Shown: positions 45,929-54,531 of the stretch, piece after piece | How positions within the stretch are numbered: position 1 is the first letter of the stretch | Layout of the letters: each line of letters begins with the position of its first letter | From: Polymyxa betae A26-41 | Lineage: Eukaryota > Protista > Endomyxa: Phytomyxea | Assembly (NCBI GenBank): GCA_003693705.1 | Contig: RBZT01000096.1 | Coordinates: forward strand, 1 to 55,817 | Length of the DNA stretch: 55,817 nt | Reading direction: 5' to 3' | Translations under genes and position numbers: made by a program | The notes under the pieces: model-generated | Told to the model about the DNA's origin: nothing | The model's input: the letters and a program-made list of their open reading frames with translations, nothing else | Databases searched by the model: none

Positions 45929-47494
45929 ATGGATTTGGCCGAGCTCTCATCCTGGGTTGGAAATGATTGCCTGGCTGCGACCGAATCCTTTGAAATCGGT
46001 CAAGATGCAGAATGTGGTCGTGGCCTATTCGCTCGATCTCACATCAAACCCGGGACGGTGATCATGACCATTCCGATCTCGAAAATCATCACCAGCGTCA
46101 TGGCCTATGAGACTTTGACTTCATTAAACGCCACGAACTGGAAATATCGTCATTCGTTGCTGGCGACGTTTCTCGTTTTGGAGAAGAACAAAGGCTCGGC
46201 TTCTACCTGGCATTGTTATATTCGGAATCTTCCAGAGGGAATACCGCCCTTTATGGAAAGATTTCTGAACGATGGATTGAGCGATATTGTTACCTGCTCG
46301 CTGAGCTTTGGAAGATTAAAGAACCGCATTCAGGCATTGATTTCGGATTATGAAACTCTTCGAGTAACAGATCCGGATCTGGCACCGAATAATCTCCAAC
46401 AATTTCTATGGGCTGTATGGATGGTCACAAGCCGGGCTTTTGCTCTCTCAATGCCTGATCGTACAATCACAGGTTGATCGGCGATTTCTGCGGCTGCTTC
46501 ATGACCGATGATTGATAGGGCTTGTACCGATCGCCGATCTCCTCAATCATGCTACACCTTGTAATACATCTTGGAGTTACGATCACGAATCGGGAATGTT
46601 CTTCGTCCGATCTGTAGATGGTATTGATTCTGGCAAACAGATCACCGATTCCTATGGTAGGAACATTCCCGCCGAATTTCACGAAATCGACGATTTTTCT
46701 TCACAAAATCGCAAATTTTCTTCACAAAATCGATAGGTTTTCTTCAAAAAAGATGATGTTTTACAAAATCGATGGTTCCAGGGCGACAACATAACGATTG
46801 TTTCTCATTGGATGGATGCGCTCAGGTCTAAAATGCAATTCGCATTATTTCGTGAATTACGGGTTCGCTCAATATGAGAATCCCGAGAACGAGGTCACGA
46901 TCAAGCTCTTCATATCTGATCAAGATCCTCTGAGAATTATGAAATCTCGTCTTCTGGGATTTACCTGCAAACATGTCCACATCAAATCCGACATCAACTC
47001 GCCATCATTTCTATATTGTTTATTCATTTTGAGGGTCATTCATGCTGGCTTCAAAGATTTCGCTTCCCTCTCCAACACTCCGAAAACATGCGGTCTGAGG
47101 CCGCTCAATATCAACAATGAAGTCAAGGTTTTACAGAGTTTAAGAGATGGTGCTCGTCAGGGCTTCAGATGCCTGAAACAGGTATTCATGCATTTCTGTA
47201 TTAAGCTTTCAATACGCAACCAAATTGGCAGCAAGAAATAACAGTTTGAAAGTTCTTTGATATTCTGTCAATAACACATCGAATGACTAAAATCATGTTT
47301 AGGAGATGGATCGAGTGTTCAGTAAGCACGAACATAATAACGCATTGATAATTTGTATGAATGGAGAATTACATCTTTATGAATGTATTATTGAATTTGC
47401 CGATTATATGCTACATATTATATCATGCCGGAAGCGGATTCCACATGATCATCGATTCCCGGATTATTTCAATTCGATATCGTCGTTGTTCTAG
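45929..47494 (+). CDS. SET-domain protein methyltransferase, SETD3/Rubisco-LSMT class; exons 45929-46472, 46519-46656, 46826-47181, 47303-47494
   Basis: GRGLFARSHIKPG, WHCYIRNLP, FLWAVWMVTSRAF, LVPIADLLNH, QITDSYG|LKCNSHYFVNYGF...NPENEV and a substrate-binding C-terminal domain. Confidence 0.9.
46690..46773. repeat. Degenerate ~21-bp minisatellite (TTTTCTTCACAAAATCG core) inside SET-gene intron 2
   Basis: Two near-identical and two degenerate copies are visible. Confidence 0.7.
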
Positions 47495-47754: not shown

Positions 47755-47904
47755 GAGTGATCACTAATGAAACGAATGGAAAAACAAATCGAAACTAAGT
47801 ACAAACTCCAAATTTGGACGCTCAGGACGAAAGGCCGTGCATCACTCCGTACGGAGTTTGTCCTCTACTCTCTATCTCTCTATCTCTATCTCCATCATCT
47901 CGTC

Positions 47905-48310
47905 ATGAACTTCATGCTGAAGGTTCTCGCAGCTGTCACATTCGTCATGTTACTCTGGCTTCATCCCGTCAGGTCCGGGGTCGTACTCGTCCCTGGCATT
48001 GGGCTCCTCTGATTTTGGATTTAGTGGTGGCCGTTATCTGTCCAGTCCGGAAGCCTATCCTCCATATCCTGCGGTATCTGGTGCAGAGATTGATCATCTT
48101 CATAATCTATCATATAGAGCTCTTCTGGGTATTGCTGCAGGTTCATTCTTTATGACAGTTCTGCTCTCCAGTTTCTGCTTCATGTTGTTCCATCCTGAGA
48201 GAACACCGACCCGAGCAACTCCACCAAATCAACATCAAGATGCTGCAAACTCAGAGAAGGAGGAAACCATTCCGCCAGTTACTTCTCCGGACTCAACCGT
48301 TCGTCATTAA
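47905..48310 (+). CDS. Small single-pass membrane protein with signal peptide; intron 47973-48024
   Basis: MNFMLKVLAAVTFVMLLWLHPVS|GGRYLSS...ALLGIAAGSFFMTVLLSSFCFMLF...; a 52-nt GT-AG intron restores the frame. Confidence 0.7.
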
Positions 48311-48897
48311 AATCTAAAAACGTCTTGTACGACATTCAGTACCAGGCTGGGCCGCCTTCCGAGCTGTATCGTGATGGATAGCTTTCCTCGGGTCGTACTG
48401 GGCCTCAGATGCCCGTTTGCTGTTCTGTCTGGATCAACGGGATCTCATTCCGATTGCATCGGTCCTCGTATCAGCACACGTCTTACAGATGACGGTCTTT
48501 GATCTAATAGCGTTGTTGTGATAGTATGAACACCGCCCTATCATCATAGACATCATTCCAATCATCTTCTTTCCTATTGTCCTGCTCCGTTTCAACATAA
48601 TTCCAACAATGATTTTTTCAGCTATCGTTAGCCGCTAACCGAAGCGATATCAACAGCCGCCATTCTCATAGCTCTCCCCCAGAAATGATAGAGATCGGCT
48701 TAGAGGGAGCAATCGGAGGAGATCACAAACCAGACTATCATGAAATCAGGAAAAATTCCAAAAAAAGTTCAAAAGACTCTCGAAATCTCGTCATCTATTC
48801 AAATTCTTGCCCAATCATCATACCAGCCCGTCCCAGATTTTTAAACAGATAATTTATTTACAAGACCCAGAAATGTGGAAGGTTGATGGGAGGGTTT

Positions 48898-50504
48898 TCA
48901 GTATCCAACAGAGAACTCAAAATTATCGACATTGATCCAGGGATAATCCTTCAATGCCGTCTGAAATCCTTCATATAATTCCTTCCATGCTGATAGACTC
49001 TCTCCAGATAGGAACGTCCCTTTAACCAGCTCCTGTAATTTCAATATACGAACACTGACACCCATCGTGGCCGCAGCAATGATATACGCGAACTCGTTCG
49101 TTCGGCGATCGTACTGGTCCCCGCTGTAGGTGCGCGTGTTCAGGTCGCAGTTGTAGATGGTCTTGAGTTGAAAGTCGCCGACGAGTTCATGATAGAAAGT
49201 GGAGACGAACAGGGCGACCTTCGTCTGAAGTTTGAAATCTTCAGGGAGTTTGTTCTGGACGAGACGCTCGACGAATTTGTCGACGACGCCGTAGATGGGC
49301 TCGGCGATTCGCTTCCATTGGCAGCTGCGACTGTCGATGAGGAATTTCTTGATATCGGCCGATTGCTGTAATGATGGGTCCGTTAATAGATCCGACATCA
49401 TCATCAGGAAAGATTCACCTACATAATGATCAGAAACCCTAACCCTAAACAGCCGAAATGAAAGAAAAGATTCTCAAACTTTTTACTGAAAAGCGAAATC
49501 GCTAAATGCGCACAAAATAATCGAAAAATGCGTTAAAAACTCGTGTTTGAAAAAGCCGACTGACTTGTGAATCCGAATCCCATCTGAATGAGCGATCCCT
49601 GATTTCCAGCCAAGATCGGGATATTGCTATTGATCTCATTCGTCCGATATGTACATAGGTAGTACAGGTCCTTGAGGACCGGGTCCTTATTAATCATATC
49701 GTAGTATGTGGTGGTGGCCGACATATACAGTTTCTGTGATACTAACAGATGGGACAGTATGGCGTGACAATGCAGAATGATATCCAGAATCAGAGTGCTC
49801 TTCATCACGGAGAGAGCGACACCGAATTTCGGATCGTTGGCGGGGATCCCGTCGATCGAGACGACGTTGAATTGGGCGTCGACGATGGCTTTACAGCCGT
49901 AGCCTTGATAATGATCTCGGACAGCGTATTTCTTATAGCGTGTGAGATCGATAACGTAACGGCCATCGGATTGTGGCATCAACCAGAAGGATCCTTCACG
50001 GGATAGAAACTGCTGCAGAGTCCCGAAATCGCCGACCTCGACCACGGGCTGGCGATTGTTGAGCAGTCCGGAGACGACCTTGATGTAGGTTGGGTCGTCG
50101 TTCAGATTGATATCGAAGGGGACCTTCGACATGGCCCATTCTAACGCCTTCATCTGTAGGTGATAGAGCGGGCTCGGATTCACGACTTCGTATAAGTTCA
50201 TGATGTTGGTCTTCGCGGCGTCTTTGTTGTTAGCGAGAGGCTGCATGGAGAAGTCGTTGGTCGTTGGACCATTGATGAAGATGTTGAGATAGGCGTGAAG
50301 GATATCGGTCTTGATATCCGAAACGCATTCTTTGGCGTCGTCTTTCCCATCATCAATGAGGCCTTCGACAGCATTCAGCAGTTTCGGTTGAGCAGAAGAC
50401 TTCATCATTTTCGATTCTGGATGAAGCTTTTGGTGCTCATAGGTCGTGACGAGTTTCTCGAAGCTGGAGAGCAGAGAGGGTAGCTGATTCATATCGATAT
50501 TCAT
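48898..50504 (-). CDS. Divergent lipoxygenase-fold non-heme metalloenzyme, 486 aa; exons 50504-49565 and 49418-48898
   Basis: FGVAL-x15-H-AILS-H (same spacing as LOX WxxAK...HxxxxH), YRTNEINSNIPIL (TxxINxxA helix), FVSTFYHELVGDFQ (HxxVN motif) and C-terminal NFEFSVGY (IxNSVxI). The phase-1 GT-AG intron joins FT S|ESFL. Confidence 0.78.
49434..49450. repeat. Telomere-like tandem AAACCCTAACCCTAAAC inside the LOX-like gene intron
   Basis: Directly visible, ~15 nt from the 3' splice site. Confidence 0.65.
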
Positions 50505-51392
50505 GATGAAGGTTGGTTGATGTTGATGCTGAGAGATGTGATGTCGAGCAGATCGTTTGTGATTTGAGCGAGATTGGAAGCCATGGGCAGAGATGTCGCC
50601 TGCAAATATTTGATAGGGATGGACAGCACGCGCCATGCACGCGATTCTGGAATCCGCGCGCTATCAGTCTCAGAGAGGGCCACAGAACCACTCTCGAACA
50701 TTCTTACAGCAAGAAACAGATGGCGATCCGTCTCGACATTCTACTACCGCCAGAAATCTGTTTAAAACTGTCGAAGTAGAACAGCTCCCATGATTATTGT
50801 GCTTTAGTGTCCGCAAATCACAAACGCAGAAAGTATCTGGTTGGAGTAAAGGCGTTTCCGCAACTGTTGATGGGCGTTCAGCGACAACGACGCATAGGCC
50901 GAAGATTCGGTGAAGATAAGATGGCGTCTTGTAACAATACAATACATCGACAGCAATGTTTTTATCAATTTTCTCTATTTTATATCAAACATGCAAATTG
51001 TCAGAATGGAACATTTTATTAAAGAGCTTTAATGCTATTCTGTCTGTCAGTCGTTATCGCATAACACTGAGATCGGCCTGATAGAGTCTGTTGTCGTTAT
51101 GGAAGCAACCAGAGGGGGTCATGGGGCACGAGCTCCTTTTTAGAGAAATCTTCCTTACATTATGGAACAGATAGAAGATGTGAATACAGCCAGCAGTAGT
51201 GGAATTGTCGACTGAGTCCTTCCAGAAAACACCGGAACTGATGAAGCTCATTGCGATTATACTTTAAGGTAACATAAAAAGATGGCATTTAATCACAGTG
51301 TATTAATGGCATAACATGAAATACAGAATGGTACATTTGATAATATAAGGCATTAGTTAGACAGTTTGAAGAATGTATGGGTGATTCATTGT

Positions 51393-52046: not shown

Positions 52047-53482
52047 TCAGAAGTTCAGCATACAATTAATATAGTCGGGTATTCCATCATACAAACAATC
52101 TGGCAATGGCATGGGATGGGACAGCACGGCCTGGTGTATCTCGGGGGCAGTATGATTCTCTATGATCCTATAAGTCCGTGTATTCGGGGTCGCATAACGT
52201 AACGGAACATAGCCGAATTCATCGGACTCATTGGCCAATGCGGGATTGTAACGAAGCAGGATAGCAGCGATCTCAGCCTGGTCGTGCTGGGCCGCCGTAT
52301 GTAACAGGTTCTTCTGGCTAGCACGACCTGGGATATCGATATGAAGAAAGAGCGCGCGGCGAATGGGATCGCCGCCACGGCCTTGAATATATCGACCTGC
52401 TTGCTATAAATGAGATCATAGAACAGATAGAAGAACTCCTGATCATGATCTTTAAGATTCAGCACAAACGAAGGAATTGAGCGTAGCGCCTCCAGATCGT
52501 TCAGATTCGCCTCGCGAACGAAAAACAGCAACGCATCGAATGCGGCTTCATTGTCGAGGAGCGGTACGACACGCGGGATATCGATGTGAGCATTGTTACG
52601 GCCTAATTTCCGGAGATATGACATGATATTGAATGCGATTCCGCGCCGATATAATTGTAGGAGTGTGTGAGGATCAGATATCAGAGGAAGGTCAGACAGC
52701 AACTTGTTGATTATGTCCGGTAGCTTAACAGCAGAGGCACCTACAAAACGATTCGGGAATTATTACTATTCAGAATGAAACTTTTATAACTTTAGTTCAT
52801 TTAAAGTTATAAATAGATAGATTATTCATTTTAATTTAGATAAAAAAGCTCAAAGATGAATTTGTTTAAAAAATATATTTTTTAATAAAACATTGTAGTC
52901 TTGATTTATAAACAAAAGATTAAAAATCGTAGAAATCTCACCAAGAGCTGCACGAATATGAGAGGGAATATCATCATCGACAGGCTGACTGAGCTGCAGT
53001 AATATCTGGGTATCGGTGTCATTCAATCCGGAGACCAATGCAGCTCCGGCAACGACTTTGCCGATCCGATCAAGTTCGAGACCATCGATTAGATGCTTCA
53101 GAAGCTGATATCGGACATGAATAGATTCCGGTAATTTGATCACACGTTGTGTTAGATACAGAGATTCAGGCCAGTCTATCCGAGACTGCAGTTCGGGTTG
53201 CTGGTGCTGGCCCAATGACGTTACCATTGATGTTACAGCCGAATCGGGCAATGTTGGATCCAATACACGACGGAGACGGACATGATTGAGCGATAATCGA
53301 TTGAATACACTGGCGGACAGATCTCGAAGCGGAATCCGCTCCAGGATCTGGTCCAGCACGTCTCGCTGTGTCAGGACCTGATCCGGCGACGACATCCAGT
53401 CGAGGTTGCCCACAGCCATATGGGTGGCGGTCGCCAGGACCAGGACGATGGCAGCGGACGCCGACAGATGTGATGTGGTCAT
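52047..53482 (-). CDS. Secreted protein with C-terminal ankyrin repeats (effector candidate); apparent frameshift at ~52366
   Basis: Signal peptide MTTSHLSASAAIVLVLATATHMAVG; AT-rich intron 52941-52741 in frame; ankyrin KNLLHTAAQHDQAEIAAILLRYNPALANESDEFGYVPLRYA lies in the -1 frame. Confidence 0.7.
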
Positions 53483-54531
53483 ATAGAAGACAGATAGGAT
53501 GTCATTTGGTAGGGTTTGTATTGACCCGGGCTGGTGACCGCGGTCGTGCTGCCTCTCGGCATCTGTCCGAAGCCGGATGTGAAGTGTTCGCTACGGTTCG
53601 TGATCGGAAGGCGTTCGACGAGCTCGCCCAAATCGATCGCCTGCACCCGGTCGTACTGGACCTGGAGCAGATCGAGGCCGCGCGCAACGAGGTCAGTGAC
53701 TTTCTCCGACGGGAGAATCTGCAGTTCACGGCTCTGGTGAATAATGCCGGAGTTGTGGAAGTTGGAGCATTTGAAGAGATACCAGCTGATAAGAATGATA
53801 TGGTGTTACAGGTAACGTAACAGCTGACGGGGTGGACTCCCAGAATCCCCTAAACCCTAACCCTCGTACACATTGCCAATCTTGATCATGCCCAGGTGAA
53901 TGTAAATGGGACCATGGCCATGACCAGGGCGTTCCTACCGCTGGTCCGAGCCTCACAGGGACGTATCGTTAATATGGGCAGTATACTGGCCCAGGCCCCA
54001 TCTCCCGGCTTTATCGCTTATTCAAGCTCAAAGATGGCAGTGCGAGGTCAGCTATTTTTCTTTCGTTTTTTTAGTATCTAGAAGCTGTTTTGAAAAGTTT
54101 TGAATTTTTACTCGAAATTTGAGCGTGGTCGCTGTGCAGGTTTTACATTGGGATTGCGAGAGGAGCTGACCCCATGTGGGGTGTCGGTGTCCCTGATAGA
54201 GCCTGGTCCCATACAGACCTCAATGGCTACCAAGACGGATCGCAGCCTTCATAACAACCAGCACGACGCCGTCTATGCCGGCCTCGAACAGTTCTCGAAA
54301 CCCTTCACCGCTCTGCTGTTCAATCAGCTCGCCGCAGTGCCGGAATCGTCCACGAACGACGCCATCGCCCATGCCGTGCTGGCCCGCCGCCCTCGGGTCA
54401 CATATGCACCCGGCAAGTTTATGTTTATGAATCTGGTGGCGGCTGCCTTACCTGCGGCTCTATCTCCATATCGGTTTCTCGTTCAAGCTTATCGTATTCG
54501 GAAGGGACTCGCCCATGGATGGAACCCTTGA
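53473..54531 (+). CDS. Classical SDR (retinol/17-beta-HSD/BDH-like) with a damaged N-terminal glycine motif; introns 53812-53895 and 54047-54139
   Basis: VFATVRD, LVNNAG, VNVNG, GRIVNMGS, YSSSK and VSLIEPGPIQT are present; the expected TGxxxGxG reads TRAGDRG. May be a pseudogene. Confidence 0.8.
53847..53864. repeat. Telomere-like tandem CCCCTAAACCCTAACCCT inside the SDR intron
   Basis: Directly visible, ~30 nt from the 3' splice site. Confidence 0.65.

Follow-up and report, generated by a model that had tools for sequence, protein, structure and literature searches.

The window (the whole stretch of DNA analysed here, 55,817 nt of contig RBZT01000096.1 from Polymyxa betae A26-41) carries at 48898..50504 a spliced gene on the minus strand, whose two exons, open frames joined by a GT..AG intron, encode a protein of 486 aa with the hallmarks of a lipoxygenase (LOX) catalytic domain. 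The gene is organised as follows:

49565..50504, minus strand: exon 1, codons 1-313 plus one base, defined by the open frame and RNA contigs; it encodes an N-terminal helical extension (approximately residues 1-91, the domain boundary being mapped from the homologue P0002), the start of the LOX domain, the helix with H247 and H252, and the arched-helix region
49419..49564, minus strand: spliceosomal GT..AG intron of 146 nt, phase 1, GC 0.36, skipped in RNA contigs
48898..49418, minus strand: exon 2, codons 314-486 and the stop codon, with H390, G394, D395, Q397, R437 and Y486

The two-exon, 486-aa coding sequence proposed in the initial annotation is borne out by RNA data. Contigs from five of eight runs (X1, X3, X13, X14 and X16, from four studies) skip the 146-nt intron, which reads CT..AC on the forward strand; in the other three, no X2 or X5 contig reaches across the intron, and X20 yielded no reads from the 6 in 100 of the run that was read. 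The X13 contig comes from a relative, with 23 differing letters in 473 nt; no library type is recorded for X14 and X16. The habitats represented are root and rhizosphere metatranscriptomes only. One spliced contig (X16 record 7, 48833-50597) includes both the start and the stop codon with zero letter differences and, because it covers the whole spliced gene, rules out a splicing artefact as the source of the C-terminal Tyr; splice and C-terminus in the RNA data are the same as those predicted. Alternative in-frame GT/GC-AG splice forms, including products of 504 and 512 aa, were absent from all RNA contigs aligned. Comparison with the homologous transcript L001 over 474 codons gave a dN/dS of approximately 0.12, at a dS of 1.8 that is near saturation.

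The neighbouring open reading frames (ORFs) are ordinary eukaryotic genes, encoding RGS, MFS, PXA/nexin, RhoGEF, SET, ankyrin and short-chain dehydrogenase proteins, and a scan of 37 ORFs and exon frames of the window detected no viral family. The GC content of the LOX-like gene (0.49) lies within, and its GC3 (0.64) just above, the range of eight neighbouring ORFs (0.41-0.61). Three of the neighbours are located as follows:

45929-47241, plus strand: gene with a SET domain and a Rubisco-LSMT-type substrate-binding domain (Pfam, both domains below cut-off)
52047-53590, minus strand: ankyrin-repeat protein gene (Pfam scan)
53305-54531, plus strand: short-chain dehydrogenase in three ORF segments (Pfam scan)

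Convergent with the LOX-like gene is a small spliced neighbour at 47890-48311 on the plus strand, with a 52-nt intron at 47973-48024 (X14 and X16); its product has two hydrophobic segments, one of them N-terminal, and belongs to no Pfam family. A single contig (X14 record 4) runs through both genes, which is not proof of a single transcript. Short doublets of the telomere-like repeat CCCTAA(A) occur at 49437-49449, in the intron of the LOX-like gene, and at 53848-53860, between two of the short-chain dehydrogenase ORF segments.

Neither exon, nor either of the full-length homologues P0002 and P0003 (70% and 51% identical to exon 1, respectively), matches the Pfam lipoxygenase family PF00305 (gathering cut-off 23.6). 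The LOX fold that had been claimed is nonetheless supported by the predicted structure of P0002 (pLDDT 90, pTM 0.90), the homologue having been folded in place of the spliced window protein. A Foldseek search of this model against the PDB gave only lipoxygenases among the matches listed, and VIA-align superposed it on human ALOX12 with a Z score of 22.9 and an rmsd of 3.7 A over 368 residues, at sequence identities to solved LOXs of 9-14%. Likeness to known PF00305 members was similar across ALOX12 (8ghc), the Pseudomonas aeruginosa enzyme (4g32), CspLOX2 (5med) and coral 8R-LOX (2fnq), with Z scores of 22.3-22.9 and rmsd values of 3.3-3.7 A. The match covers residues 81-474 of the model, which was built without metal, and its last residue, a Tyr, lands on the terminal Ile of ALOX12. 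Searched against PDB sequences, a 69-row family profile recovered solved LOXs at E 1e-15, and A6, a profile of the sister group described below, matched 11R-LOX at E 1.4e-20; A6 also scored the spliced window protein at 102.5 bits (200 shuffles, at most 4.7), a score that is not fully independent because the A6 rows were gathered with a window-based profile. The same kind of search with exon 1 or with the near-clade profiles A1, A4 and A5 gave chance matches only or none, and no LOX, and the ESM Atlas returned LOX clusters for three further queries of the clade. As judged from the homologue's model, the protein is a member of the lipoxygenase superfamily by its predicted fold and core ligands.

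The domain is compact and stands without the usual accessory module. The first 79 residues of P0002 are helix and coil outside the LOX match, with no PLAT-type beta-sandwich, and the N-terminus of the window protein is not hydrophobic (best 19-residue Kyte-Doolittle mean 0.28 over the first 15 windows, on this scale only), in line with the earlier statements that both a PLAT domain and a signal peptide are absent. The spacing from the first to the third metal-site His is 143 residues and from the third His to the end 96, compared with 180 and 123 in ALOX12, and the profile alignment places a deletion of approximately 35 residues ahead of the His390 helix relative to solved LOXs; the substrate channel may therefore be remodelled. 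Over the matched range, the domain spans approximately 395 residues versus approximately 545 in Cyanothece CspLOX2, and is thus about 150 residues shorter.

A profile search of 1.84 billion representatives recovered 74 relatives (E<=0.001), and a word-indexed search with profile A4 found at least four proteins. Pattern scans using exact short words found no relative in GTDB genomes and, for P0029, P0008, P0006 and P0005, none in viral contigs, although scans of this kind do not show absence. The tree (FastTree, 67 rows, after 13 fragment, fusion or duplicate rows were dropped and two rows trimmed) separates a far, or sister, group of 25 rows (support 99) from 42 rows that include the window protein and are referred to here as the near clade; it is unrooted, has no canonical LOX outgroup and carries a long-branch warning, and most of its rows carry no taxon. 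PF00305 matched 11 of the 72 relatives scanned at E<=0.01, nine of them above the cut-off; all 11 lie in the sister group, and no near-clade row gave a match. This supports the earlier proposal of an unrecognised subfamily; the near clade is also unlabelled. Horizontal transfer, for which a phylogeny had been suggested as the check, is not borne out: the unrooted tree groups the window protein with P0002 and P0003 (support 100), beside unlabelled rows, and the genes around it are ordinary eukaryotic ones. Two fusions were encountered: in P0042 (619 aa) a clade member is preceded by a MENTAL cholesterol-capturing domain, and in P0066 (1194 aa) a far-group LOX domain is preceded by a C2 domain and a glycine zipper.

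The predicted metal site and the conserved residues around it map to the following positions, for which residue counts refer to 41 near and 22 far rows of alignment A3, the window rows and four fragments being left out:

49749..49766, minus strand: H247-x4-H252, the first two predicted iron ligands, aligned with H360 and H365 of human ALOX12
49734..49736, minus strand: Q257, clade-specific (38/41 near rows, 0/22 far rows), aligned with a Glu of ALOX12
49611..49631, minus strand: N292 to L298, with I295 in the Coffa column and L298 as the probable Leu clamp; the far clade has one residue more here, and the register is uncertain by one residue
49168..49191, minus strand: H390-x3-G394-D395-x-Q397, comprising the third His, Gly in place of Asn/His/Ser, a near-invariant Asp and the second-sphere Gln position
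49048..49050, minus strand: R437, clade-specific (35/41 near rows; Ser in 18/22 far rows)
48901..48903, minus strand: Y486, the last residue; its counterpart in the P0002 model overlies the terminal Ile/Val of solved LOXs

The three His, which align with the ALOX12 ligands, are kept in 66, 65 and 65 of the 67 rows (H247 in 41 and H252 in 40 of the 41 near rows) and are the best-conserved columns across rows that share only 15-28% identity. The pattern HxxxxH followed 120-200 residues on by HxxxG[DN] arose in 13 of 20000 shuffles. F227 sits 20 residues ahead of H247, and this spacing, together with H252, H390, G394, Y486 and the Ile at the Coffa column, is as the initial annotation had placed it. 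Gly394 is a family-wide feature, being present in 40/41 near and 21/22 far rows (63 of 67 rows overall), whereas the last residue distinguishes the two groups: among the 39 near rows aligned at the end (two more are unaligned there), 23 terminate in Phe and 11 in Tyr (34/39), compared with Leu in 12/21 far rows. The conservation check suggested for the Gly and the terminal aromatic residue thus came out positive within the near clade. Asp395, present in 40/41 near rows, is Asn in 14/22 far rows. In the Coffa column, the near rows carry Ile (19), Glu (8), Val (6), Leu (4), Gln (2) or Met (2) and never Ala or Gly (n=41), in contrast to Ala (16), Ser (5) and Ile (1) in the far rows (n=22). Ile295 occupies this column in both alignments examined, and a shift by one residue would bring in Asn294, again neither Ala nor Gly. 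A one-residue gap likewise decides whether the Leu clamp is L298 (37/41 near rows, aligned through P0044) or, in an ungapped alignment, A299. At the second-sphere Gln/Glu position, four residues ahead of the first His, both groups mostly carry a hydrophobic residue or Thr (I243 here), and the Gln three residues past Gly394 (Q397) is kept in 30/41 near rows. In sum, the 42-row group is characterised by HxxxG-D, a Phe or Tyr at the end, a Coffa position free of Ala/Gly and near-invariant Gln257, Asp395 and Arg437, and the unusual residues are thus not confined to this gene; the three last-named residues are absent from the initial annotation.

The initial annotation described the metal site as altered, and the three substitutions behind that description, Gly394, Tyr486 and Ile295, are real; the weight given to Gly394 was overstated. 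A passage on 153 aligned LOX sequences names Gly next to His, Asn and Ser as an occupant of the fourth position, and Ile or Val as the terminal residue (PMC3840004), so that the departure of Gly394 from the canonical Asn/His/Ser counts for little. The conserved core is described as three His and one carboxylate, with the Asn/His close by and not directly liganded, and the Ala/Gly Coffa rule as having a few exceptions (both in parts of PMC13059375). The clade shares with PF00305 LOXs the HxxxxH motif, the third His, a terminal residue predicted at the metal position and the second-sphere Gln position, and probably the Leu clamp; the differences lie in the Gly-Asp past the third His, the terminal Tyr/Phe, the Ile at the Coffa site, the lack of a PF00305 match and an identity of 9-14%. 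An engineered equivalent of Gly394 exists in the Asn694Gly variant of soybean LOX-1, a single change unaccompanied by the Asp at +5, the terminal aromatic residue or the Coffa changes; Segraves et al. are said to have found in 2006 that it retained reduced activity, with water in the vacancy.

Small size is also less novel than it had been taken to be, as PLAT-less microbial mini-LOXs are known (described in parts of PMC10177866, PMC5712309 and PMC13059375). The clade resembles prokaryotic mini-LOXs and fungal MnLOX in having a single catalytic domain and no beta-barrel (from passages of PMC10177866 and PMC13059375), but those enzymes are described as ending in Ile/Val and the fungal ones are secreted (per a portion of PMC12383934), whereas complete ORFs of the clade extend down to 402 aa (P0024). 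The best structural matches were giant-virus proteins labelled as containing a lipoxygenase domain (Yasminevirus A0A5K0U892, Terrestrivirus A0A3G4ZNF4 and Satyrvirus A0A3G5ACP3; E 3e-11 to 2e-9); these labels are automatic, and no assay of such proteins was found in the literature searched. A Pfam-less 'putative lipoxygenase' is listed for Mimiviridae in a section of PMC10598087. The Terrestrivirus protein P0077 has HxxxG and belongs to the same wider family as the window protein, but sits in the 25-row sister group, which mostly has Ala/Ser at the Coffa position and an aliphatic last residue. In the literature searched, which lay mostly outside subscription journals, no account of a LOX clade ending in an aromatic residue was found; this novelty may be affected by the 153-sequence alignment behind PMC3840004 and by the cluster lists of PMC10598087.

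Splicing, conserved residues and the predicted fold of close homologues are observed here; metal binding and all of the chemistry that follows are inferred. We place about even weight for and against the protein being a soluble, cytosolic non-haem iron dioxygenase of polyunsaturated fatty acids with the predicted LOX catalytic fold, and favour this reading because the conserved LOX core is a 3-His-1-carboxylate set, a terminal Tyr can supply the carboxylate, and Gly leaves room for water. The reading is further backed by the model and profile matches to LOXs, the three retained His, the low dN/dS, and the LOX fold of a diatom member together with the LOX-type oxylipins of diatoms. Y486, through its main-chain carboxylate, and the three His (H247, H252 and H390) would bind Fe or, less likely, Mn. 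With this predicted core kept, the vacant space left by Gly394 is probably filled by water, held in all likelihood by a set formed by Asp395, Gln397, Gln257 and Arg437, which would replace the canonical Gln-Gln-Asn second sphere. Fe(III)-OH would abstract a bis-allylic hydrogen and O2 would add to the pentadienyl radical, one end of which Ile295 and Leu298 would shield; the Ala/Gly rule would in that case not predict regio- and stereospecificity. The resulting fatty-acid hydroperoxide would feed an oxylipin pathway of the organism itself, and would form in the cytosol instead of being secreted into a host. For Plasmodiophora brassicae, relevant if the window belongs to a plasmodiophorid, parts of two papers describe a hydroperoxide bicyclase (PMC12843491) and arachidonate-rich spores with three genes labelled ALOX5 (PMC5118790). 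Against a dioxygenase stand the complete lack of Ala/Gly at the Coffa position in the 41 near rows, a published terminal ligand that is only Ile/Val in the relevant passages of PMC3840004 and PMC13059375, and the analogy of LOX homologues that, with the fold conserved, can show minimal activity or act as isomerases. The low identity to solved LOXs, the near-clade profiles that match no LOX among PDB sequences, and the shortened His spacings with the deletion before the His390 helix also count against it. No enzymatic activity of any clade member is reported in the literature searched.

The main rival, possible if somewhat unlikely, is that the protein is instead a dedicated fatty-acid hydroperoxide isomerase, lyase or peroxidase, in which a bulky Coffa residue would close the O2 route and the iron would cycle between Fe(II) and Fe(III) on hydroperoxides already formed to give epoxy-alcohols or aldehydes, as in eLOX3. 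The near-far contrast in the Coffa column fits such an enzyme, as do D395, Q257 and R437, polar residues that are new and almost invariant. The Ala/Gly switch is where O2 tunnels end, and the isomerase activity of eLOX3 has been proposed to stem from restricted access of O2 (both from part of PMC13059375); a red-algal enzyme, Pyropia PhLOX, combines lyase and allene-oxide activity in one non-haem site (according to excerpts of PMC11507377). Both are precedents for non-dioxygenase chemistry on a LOX fold. Unlike the clade, however, PhLOX keeps His/His/His/Asn/Ile (same excerpts of PMC11507377) and eLOX3 itself has Ala at the Coffa position (in the portion of PMC3840004 concerned), and bulk there is therefore not the known cause of its isomerase activity. 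Moreover, the column holds no single conserved bulky residue, its register is uncertain by one, and no partner LOX occurs among the window ORFs scanned. A bolder version, which we regard as unlikely, would make the clade a distinct class of non-haem iron enzyme, where Asp395, Gln257 and Arg437 provide the iron with a rebuilt coordination or proton-relay sphere, the O2 channel is closed off by the bulky Coffa residue, and fatty-acid hydroperoxides are cleaved or rearranged on a stripped-down LOX scaffold.

We find it more doubtful that the LOX scaffold has been turned into a 3-His/carboxylate metalloenzyme acting on another substrate, such as a shorter or non-pentadiene lipid, a sterol, a carotenoid or a phenolic, possibly with Asp395 as a ligand or base. 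The short domain, the wide and patchy host range of the family, and the contrast at position 395 between mostly Asn in far rows and near-invariant Asp in near rows are consistent with this, but the probable Leu clamp (37/41) and the second-sphere Gln position (30/41) are retained, and column 395 holds Asp, Asn, Ser or Thr directly past a helix break at Gly. These are the residues that a helix N-cap typically shows. In the P0002 model the helix is broken at this Gly, and the role of Asp395 may thus be no more than to cap the helix. It is improbable that the protein is a pseudo-enzyme that binds lipid or metal and is catalytically dead or nearly so: the three usual determinants do differ together, and class II fungal LOXs keep fold and ligands with minimal activity (as stated in part of PMC12383934), but His columns that are the best conserved at 15-28% identity are not expected of a dead enzyme. 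We consider it highly improbable that the protein is secreted to rewire host jasmonate or oxylipin pools, an action the initial annotation had raised and that remains unsupported, for apart from transcription in root metatranscriptomes the evidence opposes it: there is no hydrophobic leader, and the clade also occurs in diatoms and on a giant-virus contig.

The named members of the near clade are all diatoms (Chaetoceros affinis, C. debilis, Attheya septentrionalis, Minutocellus polymorphus and Thalassiosira oceanica), and none of the five matches PF00305. These proteins (P0090, P0112, P0118, P0130 and P0146) carry no LOX label, the T. oceanica one (EJK68487.1) being annotated as 'hypothetical', and those of Attheya and T. 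oceanica match LOX structures; the model of the Attheya protein P0130 (pLDDT 85) has a LOX fold with Z 18.8 and rmsd 4.2 A over 375 aligned residues. Several diatom members have an N-terminal stretch whose motif resembles that of a plastid presequence. P0090 carries a precomputed assignment to PF26972.1, which is absent from the Pfam scan, and part of the clade may already fall within a newer family. A further near member, P0024, is a complete 402-aa ORF on a giant-virus MAG contig (L002, 5995-7203), where it is adjoined by ORFs labelled by eye as subtilisin-like, alpha/beta-hydrolase-like and leucine-rich-repeat, and in the far group P0077 has a close copy on another giant-virus MAG contig.

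What is new in this clade is the combination of a terminal Phe/Tyr, a Coffa residue other than Ala/Gly, and near-invariant Asp, Gln and Arg residues, conserved across proteins without a label from diatoms, giant viruses and the present organism. Because the protein departs from three determinants of canonical LOXs and does not reach the Pfam cut-off, it should not be filed as an ordinary LOX, and the clade offers a natural experiment on three LOX rules (terminal Ile/Val, fifth ligand and Ala/Gly switch) in a domain of approximately 400 residues. Diatoms produce LOX-type oxylipins (noted in part of PMC8511707), and lipoxygenase inventories based on PF00305 miss the whole group, including the Chaetoceros, Attheya, Minutocellus and Thalassiosira oceanica genes; counts of oxylipin capacity in diatoms and in microbial eukaryotes of other groups may therefore be too low. 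If the clade did prove to be a hydroperoxide-cleaving class, its unlabelled diatom members would be candidates for hydroperoxide-lyase-type steps in aldehyde and oxylipin synthesis, and the members from giant viruses and root eukaryotes would share that chemistry.
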